From Dehalococcoidia bacterium (GTDB lineage Bacteria; Chloroflexota; Dehalococcoidia; Bin125), in NCBI GenBank assembly GCA_963555985.3, contig OY820591.1, positions 64,001-128,000 on the forward strand: a stretch of 64,000 nt of DNA, in the 5' to 3' direction. Below are positions 24,014 through 58,315 of the stretch, one piece after another. The translations under genes and the position numbers were made by a program. The notes beneath the pieces were generated by a model, which was not told the origin of the DNA, did not search any database, and saw only the letters and a list, made by a program, of their open reading frames with translations. Positions within the stretch are counted from its first letter, which is position 1, and every line of letters starts with the position of its first letter.

Positions 24014-25201
24014 TCAGTCCACCTGGTACAGCTCCAACAGCCGCCGCGCGATCACGATCCGCTGAATCTCGTTCGTACCTTCCGCGACCGCCATCAGCGG
24101 CGCGTCGCGGTAGTAGCGCTCAACCGGCAGCTCTTTCGTGTAGCCGACGCCGCCGTGGACCCGCATCGACTCCAGCGTGCACTCCAGCGCAACCTCGGTT
24201 GCGAAGAGCTTGGCCATGCCCACATCGAGGTCGGAGCGCTGGCCGCTGTCCTTCTTCCGCGCTGCGTCGCGGGTGAGCAGACGCGCGGCCCGGATCTTGG
24301 TCGCCATCTCCGCCAGCTTGAGCTGGATCGCCTGGTGCTGCGCAATCGGACGCCCCATCGTCTCGCGCCGCTGCGCATAGACGATCGCCTGGTCAAACGC
24401 CGCCTGAGCCACGCCCGTCGCCCGCGACGCGACATTGATCCGCCCGATCTCCAGCCCCGAAATCATCTGCTGAAAGCCGCGACCCTCGCGTCCGCCAAGC
24501 AGGTTGCCGGCAGGAACCCGAGCATCCTCAAGAAACAACTCAGCCGTCTCCGGACCCTTGTAGCCCAGCTTGTCAATCGTCCGCGCCATCGTGAAGCCCG
24601 GCGTGTCTTTCTCCACCAGGAAGGCCGAAATCCCCCGGTGCCGAGGCTGCGCCGAAGGATCAGTCTTGGTCATCGCCAGATAGACATCGCCGCGATCGCC
24701 GTTGGTGACGAAGAGCTTGTTGCCGTTGAGCAGGTAATCGTCCCCGTCGCGCGTGGCGGTGGTCCGGATCGCCTGCGCATCCGAGCCGGCGTTCGGCTCG
24801 GTGATCGTGAAGCAGCCCTGCTTTTCGCCCGTCGCCAGACCGGGCAGGAAGCGATCTTTCTGCTCGTCGGTGCCGTGCTCGTCGATGATCCAGCCGTCGA
24901 TCACGTTGGTGTTAATGATCCCGGCCAGCCCCATCCAACCGCGCGAGATCTCCTCGATCACCGCCGAGTACGTCTCAAACGACAGCCCCAGCCCGCCGTG
25001 CGACTCGGGGAAGGTGATCCCGAAGATCCCCATCTCGCACATATCCGCGTGGATCTTGGCCGGGAACTCCCCGGCGTGTTCGAGCTCGTCGGCATAGGGG
25101 ATCACCTGTTCATCAACCCAGCGCCGCACATTGCGCGTGATTTCCACGCCGGTCTCGCCGTCGCCGGCGATAATCTCCCGCACGTCGGACACACCAGCCA
25201 T
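24014..25201 (-). CDS. Acyl-CoA dehydrogenase
   Basis: ITEPNAGSD, LNGNKLFVTNG, HGGVGYTKELPVERYYRDA, EGTNEIQR motifs. Confidence 0.95.
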   Translation of the reverse strand: MAGVSDVREIIAGDGETGVEITRNVRRWVDEQVIPYADELEHAGEFPAKIHADMCEMGIFGITFPESHGGLGLSFETYSAVIEEISRGWMGLAGIINTNVIDGWIIDEHGTDEQKDRFLPGLATGEKQGCFTITEPNAGSDAQAIRTTATRDGDDYLLNGNKLFVTNGDRGDVYLAMTKTDPSAQPRHRGISAFLVEKDTPGFTMARTIDKLGYKGPETAELFLEDARVPAGNLLGGREGRGFQQMISGLEIGRINVASRATGVAQAAFDQAIVYAQRRETMGRPIAQHQAIQLKLAEMATKIRAARLLTRDAARKKDSGQRSDLDVGMAKLFATEVALECTLESMRVHGGVGYTKELPVERYYRDAPLMAVAEGTNEIQRIVIARRLLELYQVD

Positions 25202-25295
25202 CGTCGAGCTCCAATCCCCTGCAACAGCGTCGCTCGGTCAGTGTACGCGCCGATCCGTCGTCGCCAGGCCGCGACCGCCGTACCCTGAGACCGCG

Positions 25296-26477
25296 ATGAC
25301 CTCGAACCTCACTGCCCAACTACGCGAATGGCGCGAACGCACCGAGTCGATCGACACGACGCTGCGAACCGCCGCCGATCGCAACGAAGAGTTGCGCCAT
25401 CTCTCTCCGGCGACGATGGACGCCTTGCGCAGCATCGACGCCTTCGGCATCTGCACTCCGGTCGACCTAGGCGGTTCGGATCTGCACCCGGTCGCGCAAC
25501 TGGAGACCGTCGCAGCCGTCTCCGCCGCCGATCCCGCAGCTGGCTGGAACCTGATGAACGGCTGCCAGGAATCCGCCTGGCTCGCAACCCGCCTGCCTGA
25601 GGAGACTGCCCAGCGAATCTTCGATCCCGGCGCGAGCGCATGGCGATTTCCCGTCACCGCCGGCGGACTGGCGCCCGAGGGCGAGGCCCGGCAGGTGGAC
25701 GGCGGCTGGCTGGTCAACGGGCGCTATGCCTGGGCCTCGGGCATTCACACGGCGGATTACGTGCTGGCGCAGAGCTTCCTCGCCGATCTTGAGCGCGAAC
25801 CAGGACGGCCGCGCCCCACCGTGACCGTCGCTGCCCGCCGTGAGGAAGTGGTGATCGAAGACACCTGGCACACGCTCGGGATGCGCGGTACCGGTTCAGC
25901 CCACTACCGCTTCGATCAGCTCTACGTGCCCGATGCGATGAAACTCCAGAACCTCGAACTGCCGCCCTTGCGCGGCAGTGACTTCGTCACGCGCCCCAAT
26001 CCGATCTTCCTCGTCCCCGCCATGTACGCGACCAGCCTCGGCATCGCCCGCCGCGCGCTCGAGGAGTTTGCGACCCACGCGCCGACTCAGTACCGGCGCG
26101 CCTACCGAGCGCCGATCGCCGAGCGTGAACGAGTGCAGCATGACATCGGCGAGGCGCAAGCGATGCTCGACGCCATCGAGGGCTACGGTCGCCGTCTCTG
26201 CGAACTGCTCCACGACACGCCGATCGCAACGCCCCAGGAAGCCGTCGAGTTGGGCGATCGCGCCCGCTCCGCCTATCGCTGGTGCAACCAGACCACCGAA
26301 CAGATCGTGAGAATCGTTCACCAACACATGGGTGGCGCTGACGTCTTCGAAAGCAGCATGATCCAGCGCTTACAGAGAGACATCCAGACCTCCGCCCAAC
26401 ACGTCATGCCCGGCGACAGCGCCTACGTCCGTCTCGGCAGACACCGCCTCGGCCTTGAAGTCCGCCCGGGGATCTAA
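25296..26477 (+). CDS. Acyl-CoA dehydrogenase-like flavin-dependent monooxygenase (paralog 1)
   Basis: GWLVNGRYAWASG, DTWHTLGMRGTGS, QRLQRDI..QH motifs. Confidence 0.88.
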   Translation: MTSNLTAQLREWRERTESIDTTLRTAADRNEELRHLSPATMDALRSIDAFGICTPVDLGGSDLHPVAQLETVAAVSAADPAAGWNLMNGCQESAWLATRLPEETAQRIFDPGASAWRFPVTAGGLAPEGEARQVDGGWLVNGRYAWASGIHTADYVLAQSFLADLEREPGRPRPTVTVAARREEVVIEDTWHTLGMRGTGSAHYRFDQLYVPDAMKLQNLELPPLRGSDFVTRPNPIFLVPAMYATSLGIARRALEEFATHAPTQYRRAYRAPIAERERVQHDIGEAQAMLDAIEGYGRRLCELLHDTPIATPQEAVELGDRARSAYRWCNQTTEQIVRIVHQHMGGADVFESSMIQRLQRDIQTSAQHVMPGDSAYVRLGRHRLGLEVRPGI

Positions 26478-26511
26478 CGGGCTGCTGAAAAGCAATGTCG
26501 TCGCGCTCTCA

Positions 26512-26569
26512 CTCTCCCCCCGCACCGCGGGGGGAGATGTCGCGTAGCGACAGAGGGGGGGGCGCCCCT
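26512..26569. repeat. Family C double hairpin (CTCCCCC..GGGGGAG-ATGTC..GACA-GAGGGGG)
   Basis: Same architecture at 35016, 42864, 44847, 44930 and reversed at 48874. Confidence 0.82.
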
Positions 26570-26642
26570 ACCTGAGCAGGTTCGCCCACGCCATTGAGTC
26601 GAGTCCGCATACCCTAAGCGAAGCCAGCGGATTGAGGGAACC

Positions 26643-27818
26643 ATGACCAACACCCTGACCGACCAACGAACCGAATGGCGAGACCGCATCGCCGCCATCG
26701 GCGACACCCTGCGCGCCGAATCCGCGACCAACGAGGAACTGCGCCAACTCTCACCGGCGACCGAGGCTGCGCTGCGCAGCGCGGACACGTTTAACCTCTG
26801 TTCGCCGACCGAACTGGGCGGACTGGAAGCGCATCCTGTGCTGCAAACCCAGGTGATCGCGGACATCACCGCCCACGACACCGCCGCCGGCTGGTGCTCG
26901 CTGATCGGTGCCCACGAGTCCGCTTGGCTCGCTTCGCGCCTGCCCGACAGCGCTGCCGAGCGCGTCTTCGCCGACGCCCGTCGGCGCTGGCCGGTCACCG
27001 CCGGATCGATCGCACCCGACGGCGTGGCCGAACCGGTCGAAGGCGGCTGGTTGGTCAACGGACGCTGGGGCTGGGCTTCGGGCATCCACCACAGCGACTA
27101 CGTGCTCGCCCAGTGCCGTATCCCCTCGCGTGAGCCGGAAGCGGGCAAACCGCCGCCGCTGGTCACCGTCGCCGCGCCCAAATCCGACGTGATCGTCGAG
27201 GACACCTGGTACACGATGGGGATGCGCGGCACCGGCAGCACGCATTACCGCTTCGACGACGTGTTCGTGCCCGACGAGATGTGTCTGACCGGCTTCGAAC
27301 GTCCTGTCCTGCGCGGCGACGGCTGGCTCCGGCGTCCGACCGTCACCTTCCTCACCGCCGCCGGCTACGGCTTCCCGCTCGGCGTCGCCAAGCGCGCCCT
27401 GGAGGAGATCACGACGCTCGCCACCACCCGCACCCGCACCGGCCAACGCGCGACGATCGCCGAACAGCAGCACTTCCAGGCCGATCTCGGAGAGTTGGCG
27501 GCGCTCGTCGACGTGATGGAAGGGTTCGGCCATCACTTCTTCGAGGAGACCCTGACCGTCCCGGTGCGCTCGCTGGAAGACGCCGTGCGGATCGACGACC
27601 GCGCCCGCTCCGTGCTGCGTTGGGCTCATCAGACCGCCGAGCACGTCGTCCGCACGGCGCACGAGCACGCCGGCGGCGCAGCCGTCTACAGCGACAACAT
27701 GCTCGCCCGCCTGCTGCGAGACATCCAAACCGTCAGCCAGCACGTGATCCAGACCCAATCCGCCTACATCCGCCGCGGCCAGCACCAGCTCGGCCTCCCG
27801 GTCCGGCCGGGTCTGTAG
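26643..27818 (+). CDS. Acyl-CoA dehydrogenase-like flavin-dependent monooxygenase (paralog 2)
   Basis: Collinear with paralog 1; NGRWGWASG, DTWYTMGMRGTGS. Confidence 0.88.
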   Translation: MTNTLTDQRTEWRDRIAAIGDTLRAESATNEELRQLSPATEAALRSADTFNLCSPTELGGLEAHPVLQTQVIADITAHDTAAGWCSLIGAHESAWLASRLPDSAAERVFADARRRWPVTAGSIAPDGVAEPVEGGWLVNGRWGWASGIHHSDYVLAQCRIPSREPEAGKPPPLVTVAAPKSDVIVEDTWYTMGMRGTGSTHYRFDDVFVPDEMCLTGFERPVLRGDGWLRRPTVTFLTAAGYGFPLGVAKRALEEITTLATTRTRTGQRATIAEQQHFQADLGELAALVDVMEGFGHHFFEETLTVPVRSLEDAVRIDDRARSVLRWAHQTAEHVVRTAHEHAGGAAVYSDNMLARLLRDIQTVSQHVIQTQSAYIRRGQHQLGLPVRPGL

Positions 27819-27860
27819 GGGTAGGCTGCGAGTCCCGCAGGCAGTGGGAAGGACGATTCG

Positions 27861-28295
27861 ATGCTGCGAATCGCACCGAAGCCGGAGGCCGTCGCGCAGT
27901 TGACGCGAATCCTGGAGGAGACGCCGGTGGGATCGACCTACGTGCCCGCCACCGTGATCAACCCCGCTGAACCGGGACGAACGTGGCAAGCCGATTTTCT
28001 GGTTGACACTGGTTCGATGAGCTGCGTCGTGCCTGAATCGGCGTTGCTCTCGATTGGAATCATCCCGCGCGCAGCCACCGAGATCTTCCTCTTTGATGGT
28101 TCAAGCCAGAGGCGCCTGGTTGGGAGTGCCGAGTTCGAGCTACTGGGCGACTCTGCGCCGAGCCGGGTCATCTTCGGCGAGGATGGCGAAGAGCCGATCA
28201 TCGGCTTGACGCTGCTGGAGTCGCTGGGCCTGATCGTCGATCCCTTCGCCGAGCAACTGCATCGACGCTCGGTCATCCGCAACGGCGCCGAGTGA
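27861..28295 (+). CDS. Clan AA retropepsin-like aspartyl protease
   Basis: FLVDTGS catalytic motif and PIIGLTLLESLGLIVDP. Confidence 0.82.
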   Translation: MLRIAPKPEAVAQLTRILEETPVGSTYVPATVINPAEPGRTWQADFLVDTGSMSCVVPESALLSIGIIPRAATEIFLFDGSSQRRLVGSAEFELLGDSAPSRVIFGEDGEEPIIGLTLLESLGLIVDPFAEQLHRRSVIRNGAE

Positions 28296-28675
28296 CGGTC
28301 TCGCCAGACACCGGCGCGCCATTCTGGACGGCCATGACGATCCCCACCAGGGAGATCGGGATCGAGGACAGTTGGCACGTCACCGGCCTCCAGGGCACCG
28401 GCAGTCCGCACTACCGAGCGCATGATCTGGTCCTCTCCGCCGCTTACGAGATGCCCTTCGGGCGAACGGCTCCAAGGCGCGGCGGCGCCTGGGATCAGCG
28501 GCAGCGCGGCGAACCCTCACAGATCTCGCAGGCGGACGAATCGCGCATCCGGGCGATGGGCTCCTGGGTCGATCTCACAGGCGGACGAATCGCGCATCCG
28601 GGCGATGGGCTCCTGGGTCGGAGATGTCTGCCTGGGCACCGTCCGCTTCCCCGCCTCCGGCCTTTCCAGGCGTGA
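28292..28675 (+). pseudogene. Fragmented monooxygenase paralog with internal deletion and 49-bp tandem duplication
   Basis: IEDSWHVTGLQGTGSPHYR and ESRIRAMGSWV match distant parts of neighbouring paralogs; 28522-28570 is repeated at 28571-28619 (1 mismatch). Confidence 0.8.
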
Positions 28676-28910
28676 ACAGGAACCTACCAGAGCACTCGCA
28701 AAACTGAACTTAGGCTGAGAAAACCAACGCTAAACTGACCGCCGCTAACCAACGCTAACCGTCCTGAACACACGATCTCCCGTAAAACACTGGACTTCCT
28801 CATTTTTCGAGCCGGTACAAAGAATTCTCCGCAGAGCGATCGCTCGAACGCACCCAAATGTTCCTGCCCCCGCCCCGCGCAAGTAGTATGAACAGGCCCC
28901 GGAGGTCTAC

Positions 28911-30104
28911 ATGAGCCGCACTAGCCCAGAACGTCAGCGAGAGCGCTCAGACTGGATCGGGCGGGCGGAATCCATCAGCCGGATCCTCAGCGATCACGCG
29001 GCAGAGTCGGCGCAGGCCAAAACACTCGCGCCCGCCGCCGTGACCGCGCTCGAAGACGCCGGCTTCTTCGCCATGGCCTCACCGCAAGAGGTGGGCGGAT
29101 ACGACGTCCACCCGGCTACCCAGGTAGAGGCGTTCGAGCAACTCGCCACCGCCGACGTCTCCAGCGGCTGGGTCGCCATGATCCAGGCCGAGACGCCCGG
29201 CATGGCCGGCTCCCACCTCGCCGACGGCCTCGGCCTCGATACGGTCTTCGGCAACGGCTTCCCTCGCATCGCCGGTACCGCCAATCCCGAAGGCGTCGCC
29301 ACTGCGCTGCCCGACGGCTCGTTTCGGCTCAACGGTCGTTGGTCGTTCGCCAGCGGTATTCGCCATTGCGGCTGGGTGTTGGCGAACTCGATCGTGCACA
29401 AGCAGGATGGATCGCGGCCCGCTCCCGAAGACGGCCTGCCGCCCGTGATCGGCTCCGTCGTGGAGCAGTCGCAAGTGATAATCGAGGACAGCTGGGACGT
29501 GATGGGTCTCGAAGGCACCGGCAGCTGCCATTACCGGATGCAAGACGTCGTTGTCCGCCCCGAGTTCACCACCCCCTTCGGCGGCGTCCACTCCAATCGC
29601 GGCGGACCTTGGTTCGAGAACCCGACGATCACCTTCCTCAGCCCCGGACACACCGGGATCGCGCTCGGATCGGCGCGCCGGGCGCTGGACCTGCTCAGCG
29701 GCGAGCTGACCAGCCGCACCCGCTTCGGCGCCGCCGGCGCAATCGCCGATCGCGGCGCCTTCCAGCGCGACTACGGCGAGATCTGCTGCCGCTACGAGGC
29801 CGCCCGCGCCTACGCCATGAGCGTGCTCGACGAAGCAATGGCCTTCCGCGAGGCAGGCGGACAAACCACGCCGGACCAGGATGCACGGATTCGCGGCATG
29901 GTCACTTGGGTCACCGACACCTGCGTCGACGTCGTCCGCTTCGCTCACCACACCGGCGGCGGAGCCGCCGCCTTCACCAACAGTCCGCTCCAGCAAGTCC
30001 TCCGAGACATCCTCGTCGCCAGCCAACACATCTTCGTCGCCGACAGCGCCTACGAGCGCACCGGAGCCCTGCGTTTGGGCCGCAAACCATCCAGCGTTCT
30101 CTGA
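28911..30104 (+). CDS. Acyl-CoA dehydrogenase-like flavin-dependent monooxygenase (paralog 3)
   Basis: LNGRWSFASG, DSWDVMGLEGTGS, LRDILVASQH motifs. Confidence 0.88.
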   Translation: MSRTSPERQRERSDWIGRAESISRILSDHAAESAQAKTLAPAAVTALEDAGFFAMASPQEVGGYDVHPATQVEAFEQLATADVSSGWVAMIQAETPGMAGSHLADGLGLDTVFGNGFPRIAGTANPEGVATALPDGSFRLNGRWSFASGIRHCGWVLANSIVHKQDGSRPAPEDGLPPVIGSVVEQSQVIIEDSWDVMGLEGTGSCHYRMQDVVVRPEFTTPFGGVHSNRGGPWFENPTITFLSPGHTGIALGSARRALDLLSGELTSRTRFGAAGAIADRGAFQRDYGEICCRYEAARAYAMSVLDEAMAFREAGGQTTPDQDARIRGMVTWVTDTCVDVVRFAHHTGGGAAAFTNSPLQQVLRDILVASQHIFVADSAYERTGALRLGRKPSSVL

Positions 30105-35898: not shown

Positions 35899-36027
35899 GG
35901 GGAGCACTCCCTTCCTGCATGAGGGTCTGGCAAAGGCTAAAGCCTGACGTGGAGACGCGGTTCTGTACTCTCGAAATGCGAGACCACGGCGATCTTGGCG
36001 ATCGCCATCGCTCCGGACGCCAACAGC

Positions 36028-36774
36028 ATGACGACCTCGACCCGGACACATATCGGCAGCCTGGAACCCGTCATCGCGACGATGGTCGACCGCCTCGTGT
36101 CCGAGTTTCGGCCCAAGCGCATCATCCTCTTCGGCTCGCGCGCCCGTGGTGACGCCCGTGCAGGGAGCGATGTGGACTTGCTCGTCGTCGTGCCCGATCT
36201 GACCGACACCAACGAAGCTGCGCTCCAGATGCGAAGCTGCTTGAGCGGCCTGTCCGTCGCCAAAGACATCTTGGTCACCACGCCAGCAGAGATCGCATAC
36301 CGTGGTCATGTCACGGGCAGCGTCCTCCACGCGGCGCTCCGCGAGGGACGGGTCGTGCATGATGGCGACGGCGTGATCGAAACCGAAGCGTTGCAATGGC
36401 TGGAGATTGCCGAGGAAGACCTAGAGGTCGTCCGTTGGGCGCTCTCGAGTGAGCCGCCTCGACTCCGCTCCGCCTGCTACCACGCGCAGCAGGCTGCCGA
36501 GAAAGCCTTGAAGGCGGCGCTCGTGTTCGAGGCAGTCGAGATCCCCTACACCCACGACCTGACGGAGCTGCGTGGTCTCCTGCCCGAAGGCTGGCCGCTG
36601 CAAACTCCGAGCGCCGACCTCAAACTCCTCACTGGATGGGCTGCCGGAGCGAGATATCCCGGCAGTGCGACAGCGCCAAGCGCTGAGGACGCCGCCGCTG
36701 CGGGGGCGGCCGCGGAGTCGGTCTACGATGACATCACCGCTGGATTTGAGCGCCGCGGCGTGCTCGCCGACTGA
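36028..36774 (+). CDS. Fused minimal nucleotidyltransferase (MNT)-HEPN protein
   Basis: ILFGSRARG..SDVDLLVV followed in frame by ACYHAQQAAEKALKA..YTHDL..ARYPG. Confidence 0.88.
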   Translation: MTTSTRTHIGSLEPVIATMVDRLVSEFRPKRIILFGSRARGDARAGSDVDLLVVVPDLTDTNEAALQMRSCLSGLSVAKDILVTTPAEIAYRGHVTGSVLHAALREGRVVHDGDGVIETEALQWLEIAEEDLEVVRWALSSEPPRLRSACYHAQQAAEKALKAALVFEAVEIPYTHDLTELRGLLPEGWPLQTPSADLKLLTGWAAGARYPGSATAPSAEDAAAAGAAAESVYDDITAGFERRGVLAD

Positions 36775-36828
36775 ATGAACATCCGGCGCACCGCCTACCC
36801 TGCGACCGCACCGGATCGGAGTTGTCCC

Positions 36829-37917
36829 ATGACCACTGAGACTCAACCAGCATTCGCATACGCGGACACCGACTGGCCAATCCGCGAGACGACGATTGCC
36901 GCGCACCGCATGAGTTGGGATGTGATTGCCCGCCCGGGTCGTTGGTGGAGCGGAGCCGAGCGGGTGGCGATCGCAGCTGTCACTCGAGCGGCGGCGGAGT
37001 ATCAGCCCGCGCCGGGGGGCACGCCGCTGCCGGAGGCGGCGATTCACGCGATCCAGAAGCTGGTCGTTGATAACGCCAATCTCTCGCGGGAGTGGTACGA
37101 GGAGATGATCGCGCAGCCCGGAATGTCGGACGCGCGCTATGTGGAGTTGGTGGCGGTGGTGGTGCACGCGCTCTCGATCGACGAGTTTCACCGGGGCCTC
37201 AGTTTGCCCCTGGAGCCGCTGCCGGAGCCGATCGCGGGCGAGCCGTCGCAGATTCGCCCCGAGCTGGCGGAGCAGCGCGACTCCTGGCCGCCGCTGGTGC
37301 CTCGCGGCGGACTCAACCCGAGCGATGCGATGCTCTACGGCCCCTGGGAGTGGGGCGCGAACGTGATCTCGGCGCTCTCGCTGGTGCCTGAGAACGTGCG
37401 CTGGCTGCACGATCTCTCGGAGGGGCACTACCTCAGCTTTGCCGAGATGCGAATGCCCGATCCGCTGCGGGCGATCTCGCGTGCGCAGATTGAGTTGATC
37501 GCGGCGCGGGTCTCGGCGCTCAACGAGTGTTTCTATTGAACAACCTCTCATGTGCGGATGCTCCGTGAGAGCAGCCCCAACAACTCGGCCCTGAACATCC
37601 AGGCCACAGTCGATCCGGACGAGGACAGCGGCGTCGCCGAGGGCGAGCTGATGATCGCGTTCGCCGAAGCTGCGGTGCAACGGCGCGAGAACTTGCCAGC
37701 CGTGCGCGATCAGATCGCAAACCGGTTGGGCGCGCAGGCGGCGGTCGACGCGGCCGGCGTGGTGGCGAATTTCCAGCGCATGGTGCGGATCGCGGACGGC
37801 TGTGGGATTCCGCTGGACGAATTCACCGAGCGCGCCTCCGACGACTGGCGCGGTCAGCTCGGGATTCACGAGTACGCTTCGGCGTCGAACTCGCCGTCGG
37901 CGGTGCTGACGGATTAA
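36829..37917 (+). CDS. AhpD/CMD-like protein, probable selenoprotein 1 (UGA 37537-37539 read as Sec)
   Basis: ELIAARVSALNECFY-UGA-TTSH joins two in-frame ORFs into the AhpD CxxC..H motif; SECIS-like hairpin follows. Confidence 0.82.
37540..37578 (+). promoter_or_regulatory. Putative bacterial SECIS element 1
   Basis: Stem TGCTC/GAGCA with loop CGTGA starting 24 nt after the UGA. Confidence 0.68.
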
Positions 37918-37936
37918 CCGAGTTGAGGAGTCTGCG

Positions 37937-39025
37937 ATGACCACCACTACCGCCCCCTTCGCCTACGCGAACACGACTTGGCCCGTGCTTGATCGGATGG
38001 CTGAGGCGCACCGTCGCAGTTGGCAGATGCTGGCGTCGCCGGGCGACTGGTGGACGGGCGCGGAGCGGGTCTCGATTGCAGCTGAGAGCCGGCGCGCCTC
38101 GGCATTGGTAGACGGCTTGCCCGATCCTGGACCGGGACCGGCCGAACTGCCCGAGGCGGCGGCGTTCGCGGCGCATAAGCTGATCGGCGACCTGCCCAAC
38201 GTCTCGCATGAGTGGTACGAGGAGACCACGACCGCCGAGGGGATGTCGGACGCGCACTACATCGAGCTGCTGGGCGTGGTCGTGCACGTCTGGTCGGTAG
38301 ACGAGTTTCACCGCGCGCTCTCGCTGCCGCTGGAACCGTTGCCCGAACCGATCGGAGGCGAACCCACGCGGATTCGGCCAACGGGCGCGAAACAGCACGG
38401 CAGTTGGTCGCCGACCGTCCGGCCCGAAGACCTGGGCGAGCGCGAAGCGGACATCTACGGCGGGGCCGAATACGCCGCCAACGTGCGCGCGGCCATGAGC
38501 CTGCACCCCGACAGCGTGCGCTGGCTGGCCGATCTGTTCGACGCGCACTATCTGAGTTGGATCGAGATCGCCGGCGAGCAGGAGTCGTTCCGCATACTGA
38601 CCCGTCCGCAGCGAGAGTTGGTGGCGGCGAGAGTATCGGCGCTGAACGAATGCTTCTATTGAACGATCTCGCACGTGATGCTGCTCGGTCGGAGCAGCGA
38701 AGGTAACGACGCATTAAACCTGAACGGTACGGTGCGGAACGATATTGATAGCGGCGTCGAACACGGCGAAGTACTGCTTCGCTATTCCGACGCAGCGGTG
38801 GCTCACACATCCGATCTGGCGGCTGCGCGCAATGCGCTGAACGCGGCGATGGGGCCGGACGCAGTCGTGGATTGCGCCGCCACCATCGCCAATTTCCAGC
38901 GCATGGTGCGGATCGCGGACGGCTGCGGCATTCCTCTCGATTCATTCTCCCGCCGCGAGTCGGAGAAGTGGCGAGACGGTCTGGGGATCGACGGCTTCCG
39001 CAGTCGCGGGAACACGTTCGGCTGA
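37937..39025 (+). CDS. AhpD/CMD-like protein, probable selenoprotein 2 (UGA 38660-38662 read as Sec)
   Basis: ELVAARVSALNECFY-UGA-TISH in frame with the downstream ORF; full-length paralog of copy 1. Confidence 0.82.
38663..38700 (+). promoter_or_regulatory. Putative bacterial SECIS element 2
   Basis: Stem GCTGCTC/GAGCAGC with loop GGTCG starting 24 nt after the UGA. Confidence 0.7.
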
Positions 39026-39351
39026 GGAGGTTTTGGGCCGGCGAGCGTGCGAGTTGATCTGGTTTGCCGCTCGCTCTATCGTTGAGCCTTGAGCACCCAG
39101 CTCTGGGTCGCCAAATGTTCGGAGTTGAGCCCACTCTCGGCCTTCGACGTATTCCGGCAGTCCAGTCCCGGTCACCACACCTTCGGTGGTCGGAGCGCCA
39201 CCGAAACCAGGACCGGCGCGTTGGATCGCTCGATGCAGCGCCGAACCACGGGACCTCGCTTGGCTCCATACGAACGTGGCGTCTTACCGCTGGGGAATTC
39301 TCTGGACGCCCCCACTCACTGCGAGCGGGGGCGTCCGGCTGATTGGCGATC

Positions 39352-40005
39352 ATGTCACAACGGGTTTCGTTGTTCATCGACTACCAGAACGCATACGGCC
39401 AAGCACGCGACCTGTTCCACCAGCCGGATGACGATCCCACCTGCGGGCAGTTTCGCCCCTGGGCGCTTGGCGAATTCGTCTGCGGCCAGTACAACGAGCG
39501 ACATCCTGGGGAACCGCCCCTGGAGCTGAATGAAGTGCGGCTCTATCGGGGAGAGCCCGTGCGGCGAATGAGCCAGGTTGCATATGACGCCTTTCAACGC
39601 CAGCGCGCTGCCTGGGAGCAGGCGGGCGTGCAAGTCTTCTCAGCACCATTGCAGTATGACCAGCATGGCGAACCGCAGGCTGAGAAAGAGATCGACGTAC
39701 AACTCGCGATTGACTTCGTCATTGGCGCGGTCGAGCGGACATACGATGTTGGCGTGCTCTTCTCATTCGATCGCGATCTGCTACCGGCACTGCGATACGT
39801 TCGTGCGCAGCAGGCAAGCCACTGCCGGGCCGACGTTGCCGGCTGGGGCGGGATCAGAGACGGTAGATACTTGAGTCCGCCTGGTCAACGCCCTGTTCGT
39901 CATCTGGTTGGCAAGTCGGATTATCAGCGTCTGGCGGACGCCACCGACTATACGAAGCGAAGCTCGAACTATCGCCGAGCTCGACGACAGCGCCGCCGCC
40001 GCTGA
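39352..40005 (+). CDS. NYN (LabA/DUF88, PIN-like) domain protein 1
   Basis: LFIDYQN, EKEIDVQLAIDFV, LFSFDRDLLPAL motifs. Confidence 0.9.
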   Translation: MSQRVSLFIDYQNAYGQARDLFHQPDDDPTCGQFRPWALGEFVCGQYNERHPGEPPLELNEVRLYRGEPVRRMSQVAYDAFQRQRAAWEQAGVQVFSAPLQYDQHGEPQAEKEIDVQLAIDFVIGAVERTYDVGVLFSFDRDLLPALRYVRAQQASHCRADVAGWGGIRDGRYLSPPGQRPVRHLVGKSDYQRLADATDYTKRSSNYRRARRQRRRR

Positions 40006-40507: not shown

Positions 40508-41902
40508 CTAGCCGATGGCGGCTCGGCGCGGAGGACGGGGCGGTTCGTCGTCGGCCGGTTCGGTCGAGCGAATGTCGTCGGCGTCGAGCATGTGCCCCAT
40601 CTTCTCGTGTTTGACCGAGAGATAGCGCACGTTGTGGGGGTTGGCGCTGGCGATCACGGGCACGCGCTCGACGATTTCGAGGCCGTAACCGGCGAGACCG
40701 TGGCGCTTGGCCGGGTTGTTGGTCATCAGGCGGATGCGGGAGACGCCGAGGTCGCGCAGAATCTGCATCCCGATTCCGTAGTCACGGCGGTCGGGGGCAA
40801 AGCCGAGCGCGAGATTGGCTTCGACCGTATCCATGCCCTGATCCTGGAGCGCGTAGGCGGCGATCTTGTTGTGCAGACCGATCCCGCGGCCCTCCTGAGC
40901 CATGTAGACGATCACGCCGCGGCGCTCTTCGGCGACCATGCGCATAGCCAAGTCCAACTGCTCGCCGCAGTCGCAGCGCTGGGAGCCGAAGACGTCGCCG
41001 GTGAGGCATTGCGAGTGGACGCGGACGAGGGTGGGATGTTCGCCGTTGACGTGACCCATCACCATCGCTACGTGCTCTTCGGCGTGGTCCGAGGTGCGGT
41101 AGCCGATCAGCCGCCAGGTGCCGTGCGCGGTCGGCAGCTTGGCCTCGGAGACGCGCTCGACCAGCTGCTCGGTGCGCAGGCGATACTGGATGATCTGCTC
41201 AACCGAGACAATCTTGAGCTTGTGGCGCTTGGAGAAGCGAACGAGCTCAGGCAAGCGCGCCATCGTGCCGTCGCGCTTCATGATCTCGCAGATCACCGCA
41301 CCCGGCTGGAGTCCGGCCAGACGGCAGAGATCGACCGAAGCCTCGGTCTGGCCGGCGCGGACGAGCACGCCGCCGTCGCGGGCGCGGAGCGGGAACATAT
41401 GCCCCGGCCGCACGAGGTCGTCGGGGCCGGAGTTGAGATCCATCAAGACTTGAATCGTGCGGGCGCGGTCGTGGGCGGAGATGCCGGTGGTGACGCCGGT
41501 GCGAGCTTCGACGCTGACCGTGAAGGCGGTGCCGAGCGGCGCCGTGTTCTGTCCGACCATCGGGTAGAGGCTGAGTTGATCGAGCCGATCGCCGTCCATG
41601 GGTACGCAGATCAGTCCGCGCGCGTGGGTGGCCATGAAGTTGATCGTGTCGGCGGTCACGAACTGGGCGGGCAGCGCGAGATCGCCCTCGTTCTCGCGAT
41701 CCTCGTCGTCCGTGATGATCAGCATTTCGCCCTGGGCGAAAGCCTCGATCGCCTCTTCGACGGTGCAGAAGGGAGACTGCCTGCGCTTGGACGCGCGGCG
41801 CTTGGCGGGCTTGCGCCGCGCGCGCGGCTGCTTCGCCGCCGCTTCCCGGCCGGCGCTCTCATTGGCGGGAGCGGATTCAGGGACGGACTCGGCCTCAGTC
41901 AT
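40508..41902 (-). CDS. ribBA: Bifunctional DHBP synthase/GTP cyclohydrolase II
   Basis: DDEDRENEGD, RPGHMFPL, VRVHSQCLTGDVFGSQRCDC, QEGRGIG, MTNNP; start 41902 overlaps the ribE stop (alternative 41941). Confidence 0.96.
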   Translation of the reverse strand: MTEAESVPESAPANESAGREAAAKQPRARRKPAKRRASKRRQSPFCTVEEAIEAFAQGEMLIITDDEDRENEGDLALPAQFVTADTINFMATHARGLICVPMDGDRLDQLSLYPMVGQNTAPLGTAFTVSVEARTGVTTGISAHDRARTIQVLMDLNSGPDDLVRPGHMFPLRARDGGVLVRAGQTEASVDLCRLAGLQPGAVICEIMKRDGTMARLPELVRFSKRHKLKIVSVEQIIQYRLRTEQLVERVSEAKLPTAHGTWRLIGYRTSDHAEEHVAMVMGHVNGEHPTLVRVHSQCLTGDVFGSQRCDCGEQLDLAMRMVAEERRGVIVYMAQEGRGIGLHNKIAAYALQDQGMDTVEANLALGFAPDRRDYGIGMQILRDLGVSRIRLMTNNPAKRHGLAGYGLEIVERVPVIASANPHNVRYLSVKHEKMGHMLDADDIRSTEPADDEPPRPPRRAAIG

Positions 41903-42536
41903 GGATTCCCCCTCCGGCGAGATCGAGTTGGGGTCGGTCATGGCTTTCCCGTTCCGCTTCTCTGGCGCTGATCAGCGCGTCCACATAGCGCGCGAGGATG
42001 TCGGTCTCCAGATTCACCTCGTCGCCCGCTCGGCGGTCGAGCAGGTTGGTGTGCTCCTGAGTGTATTGAACCAGGGAGACGGCAAAGCCCAATTCGTCCT
42101 TGTCAATAATCGTGAGCGAAACGCCGTCGATGCAGATGGGCCCTTTGACGATCATGTAGCGAAGCAGTTCGGGCGGCGCGTCGTAGGAGACGACGATCGC
42201 GTCGGCCTCCGGGCGGGTGTCGCGGAAGGCGCCGCGCCCCTCAACCACGCCGCGCACCAGATGCCCGCTGAGCCGATCCATCGGCCGCACCGATCGCTCC
42301 AGGTTGACCCGCGCTCCCGCTCCGAGTTGGCCCAGATTGGAGCGGCGGTAGGTCTCGGGCATCACGTTGGCGAGGAAGCGATCGCCGTCGATTGCAGTGA
42401 CGGTGAGGTCAACGCCGTTAATGGCGATGGAGTCGCCGAGCTTGGCGTCTGCGAGGATGAGGGGAGCGTGGATCCAGAGGAGTCCGTCGTCGGCTTGGTC
42501 GATCAGGCCGACTTCTTCGATGATGCCGGTGAACAC
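41895..42536 (-). CDS. ribE: Riboflavin synthase alpha chain
   Basis: MFTGIIEE, GDSIAINGVDLT, VNLER, KGPICIDGVSLT, VNLETD motifs. Confidence 0.97.
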   Translation of the reverse strand: MFTGIIEEVGLIDQADDGLLWIHAPLILADAKLGDSIAINGVDLTVTAIDGDRFLANVMPETYRRSNLGQLGAGARVNLERSVRPMDRLSGHLVRGVVEGRGAFRDTRPEADAIVVSYDAPPELLRYMIVKGPICIDGVSLTIIDKDELGFAVSLVQYTQEHTNLLDRRAGDEVNLETDILARYVDALISAREAERESHDRPQLDLAGGGIHD

Positions 42537-43039
42537 GTGCGCCTCCTGGGTTTGGGGTCATGGTACCTGGGAGGCTGGCTTTTGGGCGTTGGGGCGTCCC
42601 CTCGCCCCAGCTCCTTCCGCCTACCTCCGTCATACCCGCGCCCAGAGCTCCGCCATCCCCGCCCCAACAAGCTCCGTCATACCCGCGCCCCGTCGCGGAG
42701 CCTGTCCCCGCGAAGGCGGGGATCACTCGCCGCGACCAGCACCCCAGCCCCGGCCGCCTCCCATTTCCGTCATTCCTGCGCAGGCAGGAACCACGAACCT
42801 CCCAACCCCCAAACGCAAATCAAAACCCCCGCCGTACCCCGACCGCCCCAAACCCCAACTCCCCTCTCCCCCCTCCGCGGAGCCTGTCCCCGCGTAGGCG
42901 GGGAGGGAGATGTCCCGTAGGGACAGAGGGGGGGGCGCCCCTCAAATGCCAACCACGACACACCCCCAAATTACCCACCCGAACACCCATCCATATAAGA
43001 TCAAGTGTCCTTCATTGAGCAAGAGAGGAACCCGGACCC

Positions 43040-43396
43040 ATGCCCTTCAACTACAGCTACCAGTCCGCCATGGCCGGCGTCGGCGAGCTCGCCTTCTCCA
43101 AGCGCGAACCCGGCTACGTCCGCGCCCAAGCCTTCGCCATCCTGCGCCGCGAACTCTCCCCCGCCAACCCCAAGAGCCGCGAGATCCACTACGCGCTCGG
43201 CATCGAACCCCACCCCGAGCCCCCGCCCCGGCCCAACCATTCCCCCCACCTGCCCGAAGCCCCGCTCACCGCTGAGCAGCAGAAGGAGTTCCACCTCCAC
43301 TCGGTCCACGCCCAAGCAGCCGCCCTCATGCGCGGCGAAGACGTCCCCCTGACGGAGGACGAGGAAAGCGAAGAGGAAGAGGATGAGCCACAGTAA
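43040..43396 (+). CDS. 118-aa hypothetical protein, putative small-terminase-like subunit
   Basis: Overlaps the TerL start by 14 nt; GAGAGGA RBS; paralog at 6158-6514. The TerS role is inferred from position. Confidence 0.75.
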   Translation: MPFNYSYQSAMAGVGELAFSKREPGYVRAQAFAILRRELSPANPKSREIHYALGIEPHPEPPPRPNHSPHLPEAPLTAEQQKEFHLHSVHAQAAALMRGEDVPLTEDEESEEEEDEPQ

Positions 43397-44804
43397 TACC
43401 CCCAGCTCAAAGCGGGCGGTCGTTGCGTTCGACCGCTTGCACAAGTCTCGCGGTTTTTTTCCGACGGACAGACAGCGCGAGCTCTGTTGCGCAGTCGCTA
43501 CCGTGCCCAATCCCGGCCTCGCCCTGGTCGGCTACGGCGGCGCCATGGGCGGCGGCAAGACCCGCGCCCTGGCCGAGCTCGCCCTGGACGCGGCCTTGAT
43601 CTTCCCGGGCAACAACATCCTGCTCGCACGCGACACGTTCACAGACCTCTACACCACGACCATGGGCGAGTTCCTGCGCATCTGCACCGCAGACCCCGAC
43701 CTCACTGTCCAACGCCGCAGTTCACCCACCCATTCCCTCACGGTCAGCAGCCTCCAGTACTCGAGCGAACCCTCCACGATCCACTTTCGCCATCTCTCCG
43801 ACTGGACCGGACTCGGCTCCCAGCAGTACGGAACCGTGCTCATAGACGAAGCCGGCGAAGTGGCCGAAGAAGCCGCCCAAATGCTCTTGACCAGACTCCG
43901 CCACCCGGCCCAACCGCAACGCTGGTTCGTGGCCGCCTCCAACCCCCATCCAGGCTGGTTCGAGCGCTGGTTCGTCCAACGCGAACTGAACAAAGCTGAA
44001 CTGGAGCACGCCGGCGGACAAGCCCGCTTCATCCCCGCCAAGATCGAGGACAACCCCTATCTCCCGGACAACTACGCCGAGCAGCAGCGCGCCCTGCTCC
44101 CGCCCGACTGGGTCGAACGCTTCATCGAGGGCCGCTTCGACGCCTTCGACGGCCTCGTCTACCCCAAATTCGACCCCAAGCTGCACTGCTGGACGGGACG
44201 CCTACCCAGCTTCGAGCGCTACATCGGCGGCCTCGACTTCGGCGCTCAGACCGAGCAAGCCCACTACACCGCCGGCATCGTCGCCGGCCTCACCGCCCGC
44301 TACGCCGTCTGCGGACCCAACGTCTTGATCCGCCTGGCCGAGTTCGAGGACAGAGGCCCCGGCGTCACCCAGCGGCTCGAACAGTGGATGCTCCAGTGCC
44401 GCCGGCGCTTCGGCTCAATCAGTTGGAACGCCGACCGCAGCCAATCCGCCTGGATCGACCATCTTCACCGCCGCGGCCGCGACATCCGTCCCAGCCGGGG
44501 CGGGCCCGGCTCCGTCCACCAGGGCATCGGCCTGGTCCAAGAGCGGCTCGCCGCCGACCCGCCCCAGTCCTTCTACACCCCCGAGCTCGTCCAGTTCCCG
44601 CGCCGCATGAGGGAGTACCAGTGGCGAGACCCCCGCGCCGCCAACCCCCAACCCCGAGACCGCGACGACGACCTCCTGGACGCCGACCGCTACTGCCACG
44701 AGCTGGCCCAACCCCAGCCCCAAGCCCCAACCACCCGGATCGAGTTCTTCCACCTCCCGCCCGTCGACCGCGGCCGCATCGCCAGCATGAGAAACCAGCT
44801 CTAA
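43383..44804 (+). CDS. Phage terminase large subunit-like protein (ATPase plus RNase H-like nuclease)
   Basis: PTDRQ adenine-binding motif, GGAMGGGKT (Walker A), VLIDEA (Walker B), ASNP coupling motif, DNPYL, GLDFG and DDDLLDADRY nuclease motifs. Confidence 0.92.
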   Translation: MSHSNTPSSKRAVVAFDRLHKSRGFFPTDRQRELCCAVATVPNPGLALVGYGGAMGGGKTRALAELALDAALIFPGNNILLARDTFTDLYTTTMGEFLRICTADPDLTVQRRSSPTHSLTVSSLQYSSEPSTIHFRHLSDWTGLGSQQYGTVLIDEAGEVAEEAAQMLLTRLRHPAQPQRWFVAASNPHPGWFERWFVQRELNKAELEHAGGQARFIPAKIEDNPYLPDNYAEQQRALLPPDWVERFIEGRFDAFDGLVYPKFDPKLHCWTGRLPSFERYIGGLDFGAQTEQAHYTAGIVAGLTARYAVCGPNVLIRLAEFEDRGPGVTQRLEQWMLQCRRRFGSISWNADRSQSAWIDHLHRRGRDIRPSRGGPGSVHQGIGLVQERLAADPPQSFYTPELVQFPRRMREYQWRDPRAANPQPRDRDDDLLDADRYCHELAQPQPQAPTTRIEFFHLPPVDRGRIASMRNQL

Positions 44805-45067
44805 CCCATGCCCACCCACAATTCCGTCATCCCCGCCCCCAAGAATCTCCCCCTCAAGGGGGAGATGCCCCAACGGGGCAGAGGGGGTGAAACGCCACCC
44901 CCAGCACAAACGCCCCCAACCAACCTCCCCTCTCCCCCTCTGCGGAGCCTGTCCCCGCGCACGCGGGGAGGGAGATGCCGCGCAGGCGGGGGACAGAGGG
45001 GGGTACCCACCCCCAGCATCCAAGCCCCAAGCAACCCCCAAGGAGACCTGCGCGTAATCCCAAATTC

Positions 45068-45172
45068 CGTCATTCCAGGCTTGACCTGGAATCTCGTCCA
45101 GAATTGCAGACTATCTGGTCGGAGCGAGATTCCAGCGTTCGCCGGAATGACGAGAGCAACGGGAATAGCCAA
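45068..45172. repeat. Family A doublet, inverted copy of 14351-14452
   Basis: Both palindromes, the spacer CTATCTGGTC and the flank GAGAGCAACGGGAAT match the 14351-14452 element. Confidence 0.88.
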
Positions 45173-45180
45173 GTGAGGCG

Positions 45181-46773
45181 CTACTCGGTGAGGGCTTTGA
45201 TGAGGGTGTTGAGGCCGTTGGGGGATTTTCGGTAGTAGCGGTAGCCGGCCTTGCGCCAGCTATCGGCGGTGGGGGCGTTTCGGGAATGGAGCGGGGCTGT
45301 GATCCATTGGCGCTCGCGGCCTTGTGCGGAAGCTTCGGAGGCTTCGCGGAGGCGTTCGGCGGCGCTGGGAGCGGCGCCTGCTCGGAGAGTGAGGCAGACC
45401 AGTTCGGCGCTCTCGCGCTCGGCCGGCAGACGCAGCGCGGCCACGCCGAGCGCGGGACGTCCGCGCTCGGCGCTTGCCATCCAGAGCACAGCCTCGCCCC
45501 GCCGAGCCTCTTCGAGCAGGGTTGCGGCCATGGGCGGAAGTTGGGCGGCGGCCAAGAGTTCATCGATCTCAGCTGCGTCGGCGGGGCCGGCGGGACGCAG
45601 GCGGATATCGAGTTCGTGCTCGGGCGGCGTGGGATAGCCGCTGATCAGGAGGTCGTCGCCCAGCTGCTCGACGCTGAGGCCGGAGAGCCGGAGCGCGTCG
45701 CGCATCCGCTCGGCGCCGCGCCCGCGCACGGCGGTCTGAGCGTCGCCGCCGATCAGCATCGGCGCGACGACGGCGTGGACTTTGTCGATCAGGCGTTGGT
45801 CGAAGAATGCGCCCAGGACTTCGCCCCCGCCCTCGACCAGCAGGTGGACGACGCCGGCCTGCTGTCCGAGCTGGTCGAGCAAGGGTTCGAGGGGGACGCG
45901 CCCGTGCTCGGCGGGGAGCGTGAGCACGCTGACGCCGCGCGCTTCGAGGCTGACGCGCCAGTCTTCGGGCGCAGCCTCGGTAGTCGCGATCAGAGTGGGG
46001 GAAGTGTCGATCCCGTCCAGGATGCGCGCATCGAGAGGAGTGCGGCCGCGGCTGTCGAGCACGACGCGGAGCGGTTGGGGCACGGGTCCGCGCCAGTCGG
46101 CGGGGCGGGCGGTGAGTTGAGGGTTGTCGAGCAGGATCGTGCCGACGCCGACCAGGATGGCGTCGAAACGGGGTCGGTTCTGGTGCGCCCAAGCGAGCGT
46201 CTGAGGACCGGAGATCCAGCGGGAGTCGCCGCTGACGGCGGCGATCCGTCCGTCGAGCGAGGCGGCGAACTTGGCCGAAACGAAGGGGCGTCCGCTGCGG
46301 CGGTGATGTTGGTACGGCTCGTAGTGTTGCGCGGCCTGGGCTGCGTCGTCGCCGACGCTGACGCTGATGCCGGCCTTGCGGAGTTGTTCGAGTCCGCGTC
46401 CGGCGACTTGGGGATCGGGGTCGAGGCAGGCGACGACGACTTGGGCGACGCCGGCGCGGATCAGAGCGTCGGCGCAGGGCGGGGTGCGTCCCTGGTGGGC
46501 GCAGGGTTCGAGGGTGACATAGAGGGTGGCGCCCCGGGCTTGGGCGCCAGCCTGGCGCAGGGCGACCGCTTCGGCGTGAGGGCCGCCCGGGGGCTGGGTC
46601 GCGCCTTCACCGACGATCCGGATCGATTGGCGGCGCTCGTCGCTGCGGGGGTGTTGGACGAGGACTGCGCCGACGGCGGGGTTGGGGCTGGTCCAGCCGA
46701 GCGCGGAGCGGGCGAGTTCGAAGGCTCGCGCCATGGGGCGGGAGAGTGCGGGTTGGGCGGGCGTGGTCGTCAT
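45181..46773 (-). CDS. ribD: Riboflavin biosynthesis deaminase/reductase RibD with C-terminal GNAT-like extension
   Basis: SPNPAVG, HAE, TLEPCAHQGRTPPC, ASLDG, DNPQLT, LVEGG motifs; about 150 extra C-terminal residues. Confidence 0.95.
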   Translation of the reverse strand: MTTTPAQPALSRPMARAFELARSALGWTSPNPAVGAVLVQHPRSDERRQSIRIVGEGATQPPGGPHAEAVALRQAGAQARGATLYVTLEPCAHQGRTPPCADALIRAGVAQVVVACLDPDPQVAGRGLEQLRKAGISVSVGDDAAQAAQHYEPYQHHRRSGRPFVSAKFAASLDGRIAAVSGDSRWISGPQTLAWAHQNRPRFDAILVGVGTILLDNPQLTARPADWRGPVPQPLRVVLDSRGRTPLDARILDGIDTSPTLIATTEAAPEDWRVSLEARGVSVLTLPAEHGRVPLEPLLDQLGQQAGVVHLLVEGGGEVLGAFFDQRLIDKVHAVVAPMLIGGDAQTAVRGRGAERMRDALRLSGLSVEQLGDDLLISGYPTPPEHELDIRLRPAGPADAAEIDELLAAAQLPPMAATLLEEARRGEAVLWMASAERGRPALGVAALRLPAERESAELVCLTLRAGAAPSAAERLREASEASAQGRERQWITAPLHSRNAPTADSWRKAGYRYYRKSPNGLNTLIKALTE

Positions 46774-54080: not shown

Positions 54081-54187
54081 GGGCTCGCGTCTGCGGCCGG
54101 TCTGACGCTCTCACGGTTGCGCGAGCGCACTGTTAGCGTCATCAGCACAGCGACCGACTTCAGACGACTCTGGAGTGGAGACAGACC

Positions 54188-57823: not shown

Positions 57824-58240
57824 ATGGGCGAGATTGTGGTGGAGATTGAGTTGGAGAACATCGGCGATCGGAAGCTGGCTGAGGCGGGGATTCGAGCTGA
57901 GGCGGATGTGCGGCGGGAGACGCTTCGCGCGGTGGCCGATACCGGAGCGGTGATGTTGGCGCTGCCGGCGGATGTGGTGGAGCGGCTCGGCGTGCCCGTG
58001 GTGGACACGATTACGACGACGTATGCCGACGGTCGCCGGGGGGAGCTGCCGGTGTCCGACACGCTGACGATTCGGATTGGGGATCGGCGCATGGGGACGG
58101 AGTGCATCGTCGTGCCGGAGGGCGCGGAAGCGCTGGTCGGGCAGGTGGTGATGGAGGTGCTGGATCTGATTGCGGACCCGGTGAACCAGACGCTGGGCCC
58201 GAGGCCGGAGTCGCCCGATCGGCGGTTGTTGCGGGTGTGA
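57824..58240 (+). CDS. Clan AA retropepsin-like aspartyl protease, tandem copy 1
   Basis: AVADTGAVMLALP, YADGR, ALVGQVVMEVLDLIADP motifs. Confidence 0.88.
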   Translation: MGEIVVEIELENIGDRKLAEAGIRAEADVRRETLRAVADTGAVMLALPADVVERLGVPVVDTITTTYADGRRGELPVSDTLTIRIGDRRMGTECIVVPEGAEALVGQVVMEVLDLIADPVNQTLGPRPESPDRRLLRV

Positions 58241-58315
58241 GGGGTCGGCCCTTCATCGTTCGTGACAGGGGCGGCGGGTATATTGGGGCTGTGAGCGCGG
58301 CGTTTGGAGGTTGTC

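Follow-up and report, generated by a model that had tools for sequence, protein, structure and literature searches.

Selenoproteins that carry selenocysteine (Sec, U) in an AhpD-related CFYUT motif have been known for about twenty years. They were described in the 2005 Sargasso Sea selenoproteome as 'hypothetical protein 1', with four Sec-containing sequences, Cys homologues, a conserved CXXU motif and, in Figure 3 of that work, a predicted selenocysteine insertion sequence (SECIS) element (Zhang, Fomenko and Gladyshev 2005; PMC1088965), and a 2026 review equates this family with NCBIfam model NF041238 and lists it as 'AhpD-related protein' (PMC13188914). The model, 'AhpD_rel_CFYUT, alkylhydroperoxidase-related (seleno)protein', is an equivalog of 357 positions with a curated cutoff of 175 bits, and contains the motif in its name. 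Here we analyse two tandem genes that match it in a 64,000-nt stretch of a Dehalococcoidia bacterium (assembly GCA_963555985.3, contig OY820591.1, positions 64,001–128,000 of the forward strand; hereafter the window, within which all coordinates are given). Gene 1 (36829–37917, plus strand) scores 356.5 bits over model positions 1–356 of 357 (E = 1.7e-106) and gene 2 (37937–39025, plus strand) 344 bits over positions 3–357 (E = 1e-102), and both carry the C-F-Y-U-T motif, in which the fourth residue is Sec or Cys. Both genes are thus ordinary members of a published, curated selenoprotein family recognized since 2005. A first-pass annotation made from the DNA alone had proposed two AhpD-related CxxU selenoprotein genes of roughly 362 residues, which these scores bear out, and had called them 'hidden selenoproteins'; they are hidden from generic gene callers, but not from the literature or from NCBI, which curates a model of the family.

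We conclude that the locus very probably encodes two tandem, two-domain NF041238 selenoproteins of 362 residues each, in which an in-frame UGA is decoded as Sec by means of a downstream hairpin. In the ORF listing of the window, four plus-strand open reading frames (ORFs) at 36775/36829–37539, 37552–37917, 37937–38662 and 38675–39025 form two in-frame pairs, and a single TGA is the sole break in each pair (37537–37539 and 38660–38662), as the first-pass annotation had noticed. When these TGA codons are read as U, both genes yield proteins of exactly 362 residues, containing NECFYUTTSH in gene 1 and NECFYUTISH in gene 2, before terminating at TAA and TGA, respectively. Aligned from end to end, the two proteins share 53% of their residues. 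Read-through and comparison with homologues place Sec at residue 237 of gene 1 and residue 242 of gene 2, after which a further 125 and 120 codons follow.

To define how the UGA position behaves across the family, we used a one-genome-per-species scan that returned 416 relatives, of which the best 80 matches were kept, giving 77 loci from about 10 phyla. The nearest loci come from Dehalococcoidia and other Chloroflexota metagenome-assembled genomes (MAGs) at 67–73% identity, and more distant ones from Myxococcota, Binatia, Acidobacteriota, Pseudomonadota, Actinomycetota and others. The codon that follows the motif is TGA at 106 of 107 occurrences (105 in these loci and 2 in the window) and TTA at one; a looser motif adds two further TGA sites, both NQCFY-TGA, in loci L041 and L075, bringing the total to 108 of 109, or 106 of 107 outside the window. 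The sole other codon, TTA (Leu) at L011:2267–2269, sits on a 2297-nt contig, 30 nt short of its end, and may be an assembly or sequencing error and not a true Leu form. None of the 109 sites in the window and the 77 loci from the best 80 matches carries TAA, TAG, TGC or TGT, although with sampling restricted to the best matches the missing TGC and TGT are no proof against Cys forms. Beyond the TGA the frame stays open for 117–163 codons in all 101 ORFs that could be delimited. The first-pass annotation had held that TAA or TAG at the site, or halves in different frames, would tell against Sec; what we found is TGA at all but one site, always in the same frame.

Protein collections contain both the truncated and the complete forms of the family. 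A protein search returned 872 matches, and all 120 matches listed are N-terminal pieces of 229–272 amino acids at 61–65% query coverage; each of the 18 sampled among them ends exactly at NECFY. We also searched 1.84 billion representatives of 50%-identity clusters with a profile and classified the best 150 of the 3429 relatives found: 104 end directly before the site, 31 read through it with Cys, and one each reads through with Gly and with Ser, while 13, mostly fragments, are unclassifiable, two of these 13 ending at the site with Q instead of E at position −12. Gene callers thus split most members of the family, as the first-pass annotation had predicted, and the Cys it had suggested seeking at the UGA position in homologues is present in these 31 representatives.

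Each TGA is followed at a fixed distance by a hairpin. GCTC stands 21–24 nt and GAGC 30–33 nt after each TGA, and the 5-nt loops between them, CGTGA in gene 1 and GGTCG in gene 2, begin 24 nt after the TGA and have G at loop position 2, although the residues encoded across the hairpin differ (RMLRESS in gene 1 and MLLGRSS in gene 2). The SECIS-like hairpin of gene 1 (37556–37576, plus strand) comprises five core pairs, an A/G mismatch and two more pairs around the loop CGUGA (37564–37568), as delineated by alignment of homologues and covariation; that of gene 2 (38679–38699, plus strand) is an 8-bp stem around the loop GGUCG (38687–38691), drawn from the same alignment and with a core-pair probability of 0.998. 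The position-matched hairpins of the first-pass annotation therefore stand at the coordinates it gave, with covariation and invariant synonymous sites behind them. Bacterial SECIS elements sought by bSECISearch-type criteria have a loop 16–37 nt after the UGA and a G among its first two bases, and both hairpins here, with the loop at 24 nt and G at position 2, are of this kind. As a chance control, we asked how many of the TGA trinucleotides in the window, both strands included, are followed by a stem of at least 5 bp with a 5-nt loop at the exact spacing and G in the first two loop bases; 10 of 1573 are, and two of those 10 are the sites described here.

Comparative analysis supports the hairpin across the family. 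We aligned the 54 nt from each TGA without gaps, giving 103 distinct sequences, and found that helix columns 20–27 with 33–40 are paired in 87.9% of cells, compared with 29–53% when the 3′ partners are slid by 1–3 columns. Covariation in the helix scores 0.185; shuffles score 0.112 ± 0.009, and none of the 500 reaches the observed value. Such figures are inflated by the relatedness of the sequences and by deriving the structure from the same sequences. Four helix pairs vary on both sides (at pair 22–38, for example, 63 sequences have CG, 12 have AU and 2 have GC), and the inner five pairs are kept in 96–100% of the sequences. Codon-level evidence is independent of this caveat on covariation. 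None of the 103 sequences departs from G, C and G at the third codon positions in columns 24, 27 and 33, respectively; the Leu codon at columns 25–27 is always CUC, and the codon at columns 31–33 always ends in G, yet encodes Ala in 39 sequences, Arg in 31, Glu in 25, Val in 7 and Gly in 1. Third positions outside the hairpin have an entropy of 1.3–1.8 bits. At loop position 2 (column 29), all 103 sequences have G. The helix core is present in 85 of 103 single-sequence minimum free energy (MFE) folds, and a 7-bp helix emerges from RNAalifold when RIBOSUM scoring is used.

The residues around the UGA resemble a known active site. The top match in a profile search of the PDB is Deinococcus radiodurans AhpD (6k40; E = 4.1e-15). 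Next come 2oyo, 2pfx, 3c1l and 2prr, all of these aligning to the C-terminal half of the protein, whereas M. tuberculosis AhpD reaches only E = 0.016. In the alignment, the family segment ELvAaRvSalNECFYCTtsH lies on ELLAVVVSGLNRCVYCAVSH of 6k40, with NECFYC-T-SH over NRCVYC-V-SH, and the Sec position therefore coincides with the second Cys in the CxxC pair of AhpD. A full-length alignment of 41 sequences, comprising the 2 window proteins and 39 of the 101 read-through ORFs, shows E222, C234, U237 (U or C), T238 and H241 of gene 1 to be invariant in all 41, defining the motif E-x11-C-x-x-U-x3-H; the active-site codons of gene 1 are at 37492–37494 (E222), 37528–37530 (C234), 37537–37539 (U237) and 37549–37551 (H241). 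A full-length AlphaFold (AF2) model has a predicted local distance difference test score (pLDDT) of 94.9 and a predicted template modelling score (pTM) of 0.93, with pLDDT 96–98 across the UGA site, and Foldseek places 6k40 and 2prr first among its structural matches (template modelling score TMt 0.77 over about 195 columns). On this model, the C-terminal half (residues 159–350 of gene 1; 37303–37878, plus strand) is predicted to be an all-helical AhpD-fold catalytic domain bearing the E…C-x-x-U…H site.

The N-terminal half is less readily classified. Residues 1–158 of gene 1 (36829–37302, plus strand) are modelled alone as a five-helix domain at pLDDT 95.2, and the best Foldseek matches are 6k40, 2oyo, 2prr, 3lvy and 6e8l, at TMq 0.39–0.56 and E = 0.3–0.7. 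The N-terminal CMD-like region proposed by the first-pass annotation is thus plausible but weakly supported: the top structural matches all have the AhpD fold, but their TM scores are low, the PDB profile search with this domain reaches 6k40 only at E = 0.021, and a test for internal duplication by hhalign of the N-domain profile against the C-domain profile gave a probability of only 6.5%, although it aligned an N-domain CxLC with CFYU. Most members outside Dehalococcoidia carry C-x-L-C-x-x-R followed by ALSP in this domain (for example, L039:6001–6504 and L040:5992–6495), and the segment is missing from both window copies (36829–37302 and 37937–38422) and from the nearest Dehalococcoidia copies of either type. 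The alignment of an N-domain CxxC with CFYU hints at an old internal duplication whose first redox site may have been lost here.

These features suggest a mechanism in which a ribosome reaching the in-frame UGA would encounter the hairpin, whose loop starts 24 nt downstream, bound by a SelB-type elongation factor carrying Sec-tRNA(Sec), Sec would be inserted and translation would continue for the remaining 125 codons of gene 1 or 120 codons of gene 2. In M. tuberculosis AhpD, which reduces the peroxiredoxin AhpC, Cys133, the second Cys of the CxxC pair, is the nucleophile and is aided by His137 and Glu118. By analogy, Sec in place of this Cys would make the attack in a selenol/thiol redox pair, and the product is most likely a selenol/thiol oxidoreductase that would cycle through a Cys–Sec selenenylsulfide, perhaps acting as a hydroperoxide reductase or as a reductase of a peroxiredoxin-type partner. 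The analysis shows family membership, conservation of the TGA, the Sec/Cys pair, constraint on the hairpin and the fold; the substrate, the reductant, recognition by SelB and the incorporation of selenium by this organism are what we infer from it.

Several results weigh against Sec decoding or against the assigned function. Neither tRNA-Sec nor selA, selB or selD was found in the 64-kb window by ARAGORN and by comparison of 61 ORFs with NCBIfam, and of the 77 related loci, 60 were scanned with ARAGORN, which detected no tRNA-Sec in them. No peroxiredoxin or conserved redox partner adjoins the genes in the window or among 100 flanking ORFs from 19 of the 77 loci searched against Pfam, and the substrate named above is therefore a guess. 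The proteins also fall below the cutoffs of neighbouring families, with 16.7 bits against 191.95 for TIGR00777 (M. tuberculosis-type AhpD) and 33.6 and 33.2 bits against 81.8 for TIGR01926; the TIGR01926 'AhpD-like 1' selenoprotein family is related to, but distinct from, that of the two genes. The general superfamily models do match: PF02627 (Pfam CMD) exceeds its cutoff of 23 bits marginally in both proteins (26.5 and 23.6 bits), over about 30 residues around the motif, and TIGR00778 (AhpD core) scores 27.4 bits, just below its cutoff of 27.8, and 28.4 bits, above it.

The hairpin, too, fares worse in thermodynamic than in comparative analysis. RNAalifold with default scoring returned an empty structure for the 103 sequences, and single-sequence folds are no better than shuffles (z = −0.45 to −1.9). 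No Rfam family matches the hairpin: a gathering-threshold scan of the whole window gave only tRNA-Lys, and an E-value scan of 37480–38760 gave two chance-level matches unrelated to SECIS. In gene 1 the MFE structure is a competing hairpin at −14.7 kcal/mol, compared with −8.5 kcal/mol for the conserved one, whose core-pair probability is 0.009. The case for the hairpin accordingly comes from the comparison of homologues and not from thermodynamics, since single-sequence folding is not significant and the competing structure is the MFE fold of gene 1. That competing hairpin, at 37545–37571, pairs CUCUCAUG with CGUGAGAG, and its predicted stability exceeds that of the conserved one by about 6 kcal/mol. 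We considered its helix (columns 9–16 with 28–35) as a conserved element and rejected it: 76.8% of cells are paired, but 346 of 500 shuffles reach that value, and its covariation score of 0.099 against 0.102 in shuffles gives no family-wide support. Given the usual extent of the mRNA channel, the 5′ arm of the competing helix would presumably lie inside the ribosome when UGA occupies the A site, leaving the conserved hairpin free to form.

An organism lacking Sec machinery might instead read the UGA through by near-cognate or suppressor decoding, inserting Cys, Trp or another residue; neither sel genes nor tRNA-Sec lie in the 64-kb window, and no tRNA-Sec lies in the 60 loci scanned. We judge such decoding very unlikely. 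A conserved hairpin at a fixed position with an invariant loop G is the expectation for a SelB-dependent site; curators and published work alike treat the family as selenoproteins (PMC13188914, PMC1088965); and Dehalococcoidia MAGs are reported to contain 49 and 46 selenoproteins (PMC13326102).

A second explanation takes the TGA codons as ordinary stops, so that each gene would be a split gene encoding an N-terminal protein of about 236–241 amino acids and a C-terminal protein of about 116–121 amino acids initiated at a GTG a few codons downstream. Generic gene calling yields just these pieces, and the N-terminal ones are abundant in public protein sets. The split would, however, divide the invariant E-x11-C-x-x-[U/C]-x3-H motif between Cys and His; the supposed stop is TGA in 108 cases out of 109 and in no case TAA or TAG, though those two together end 28 of the 55 window ORFs; and it would have to cut what Cys homologues read straight through and what the model folds as one confidently predicted domain across the site. 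We therefore regard a split gene as highly improbable.

Two further explanations have next to no standing. Inactivation of both genes by nonsense mutation would account for an in-frame stop in each, but the idea is effectively refuted by comparison, as the same codon occupies the same site in two 53%-identical paralogues and at 106 of 107 sites elsewhere, coding composition is kept in both halves (G+C content at third codon positions 0.74–0.86) and protein conservation persists downstream of the stop. Genome-wide reassignment of TGA to Trp or Gly (NCBI tables 4 and 25) has nothing more than the two in-frame TGAs in its favour and is refuted by stop usage, because TGA is the commonest stop in the window, ending 27 of 55 ORFs, 14 of the 32 with an NCBIfam match and gene 2 itself, and in other genomes it likewise terminates 51 of 101 family genes. 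The residue that homologues carry at the site is, moreover, Cys rather than Trp, with Gly in a single one of the 150. A search for other TGA-split pairs in the window produced three further same-frame pairs, all of them merely adjacent genes.

The two selenoprotein genes are probably co-transcribed. They are co-oriented and separated by a 19-nt spacer that carries GAGGAG (37925–37930, plus strand), a putative ribosome-binding site 6 nt 5′ of the gene 2 ATG; a second putative site, GGAG (36818–36821, plus strand), lies 7 nt 5′ of the gene 1 ATG at 36829, a start that is consistent with the N termini of homologues. A scan of 36300–39500 revealed no promoter-like site, no plus-strand terminator-like site between the genes and a single minus-strand terminator-like site at chance level. 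The upstream neighbour (35995–36774) encodes a 259-amino-acid protein with a weak N-terminal match to an MntA-type nucleotidyltransferase (antitoxin; NF047752, E = 1.4e-8, below cutoff), and its TGA stop (36772–36774) overlaps the alternative upstream ATG of gene 1.

Tandem arrangement recurs in the family: 28 of the 77 loci contain two same-strand TGA sites 1100–1250 nt apart. Maximum-likelihood analysis of the 41 aligned sequences groups all 19 Dehalococcoidia rows in a single clade (support 100/100), within which copy-1 types (8 rows, 81/73), including gene 1, separate from copy-2 types (10 rows, 96/94), including gene 2; the duplication therefore predates the divergence of these genomes. 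The pair stands between an α/β-hydrolase gene upstream and a riboflavin operon downstream, and the same synteny is seen in the nearest Dehalococcoidia loci. Among the 19 of 77 loci whose neighbourhoods were analysed, scattered genes for GST, MAPEG and family III CoA-transferase proteins and one for a pyridine-nucleotide disulfide oxidoreductase occur, none conserved across phyla. The Binatia MAG locus L041, which also carries a tandem AhpD-related pair, contains a 157-amino-acid ORF (L041:11129–11599) that matches only positions 200–345 of 347 of Pfam GRDB (glycine/sarcosine/betaine reductase selenoprotein B) and may be another selenoprotein gene cut at a UGA.

The window is chromosomal, with a G+C content of 66%. 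It starts inside dnaA (1–1233, minus strand; TIGR00362, E = 3.8e-93), and the region is therefore probably close to the chromosomal replication origin. Within the riboflavin operon, about 2.6 kb (42537–45180) separates the riboflavin synthase gene (41895–42536, minus strand) from ribD (45181–46773, minus strand), which are adjacent in locus L005. An ORF between these rib genes (43383–44804, plus strand) has a weak match to a phage terminase large subunit (TIGR01547, E = 9e-10, below cutoff), and the stretch may be the remnant of a mobile element. Elsewhere the window encodes three HsaA-like flavin-dependent monooxygenases (25131–30104), three small clan-AA aspartic-protease-like proteins (27861–28295, 57824–58240 and 58304–58732) and two adjacent α/β-fold esterases related to macrolide esterases (53196–55084), all below family cutoffs.

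The main value of these observations is for annotation. Generic callers turn each gene into a 'hypothetical protein' of 236–241 amino acids and another of 116–121, and such fragments dominate public collections (104 of the best 150 representatives). Read correctly, the locus contributes two further selenoproteins to a Dehalococcoidia-like (Chloroflexota) genome, with the implication that the organism needs selenium and Sec machinery. Existing knowledge of the family is unchanged by these two genes, but an active site dominated by Sec, an extra N-terminal domain and a conserved tandem duplication are reasonable entry points for selenoprotein research.

The two proteins can be compared with several described systems. 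One likeness is to the eukaryotic sestrins, which consist of two AhpD-like helical halves. Whole-length Foldseek matches to Sestrin2 (5dj4, 5t0n and 9lvj) span 344–404 columns at a probability of 0.98–0.99, but with TM scores of 0.42–0.47, a root-mean-square deviation of 10–15 Å, 11–13% identity and E = 0.03–0.06, and no sequence-level sign of kinship accompanies them. That the N-terminal half is a degenerate AhpD domain in a sestrin-like two-domain architecture, one that in most members outside Dehalococcoidia would still bear a CxxC of its own, and that the tandem Dehalococcoidia paralogues form a hetero-oligomeric selenoenzyme is, taken jointly, an unlikely proposal. M. tuberculosis AhpD (1knc, 1gu9 and 1me5; TIGR00777) shares the CMD/AhpD superfamily and the CxxC..H catalytic arrangement with the proteins described here, but the match in sequence is marginal by both the PDB profile search and the TIGR00777 score, and no ahpC adjoins the genes.

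The selenoproteins 'AhpD-like 1' (COG2128/TIGR01926) and 'AhpD-like 2'/CMD (PF02627), described from marine metagenomes (PMC2398784, PMC1088965), likewise place CxxU on an AhpD/CMD fold with Sec as the second residue of the pair, but they are entered as separate families in the table of PMC13188914, and they are without the N-terminal domain and the CFYUT motif. D. radiodurans AhpD (6k40) and the 'peroxidase-related' AhpD-core proteins 2oyo, 2prr, 2pfx and 3c1l (TIGR01926-type) have the same fold as the C-terminal domain (TMt 0.77), and their E-x11-C-x-x-C-x3-H matches the motif here residue for residue; these are single-domain Cys proteins of about 190 amino acids, whereas the two proteins described here add some 160 residues as an N-terminal domain and have Sec in place of the second Cys. 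Closest of all is NF041238/hypothetical protein 1 itself. The tandem paralogue pair goes unmentioned in the portions of the published descriptions available to us; in every other respect, from the full-length match, CFYUT and CxxU to the downstream SECIS element and the Cys homologues, the two Dehalococcoidia genes show no essential difference from that family.

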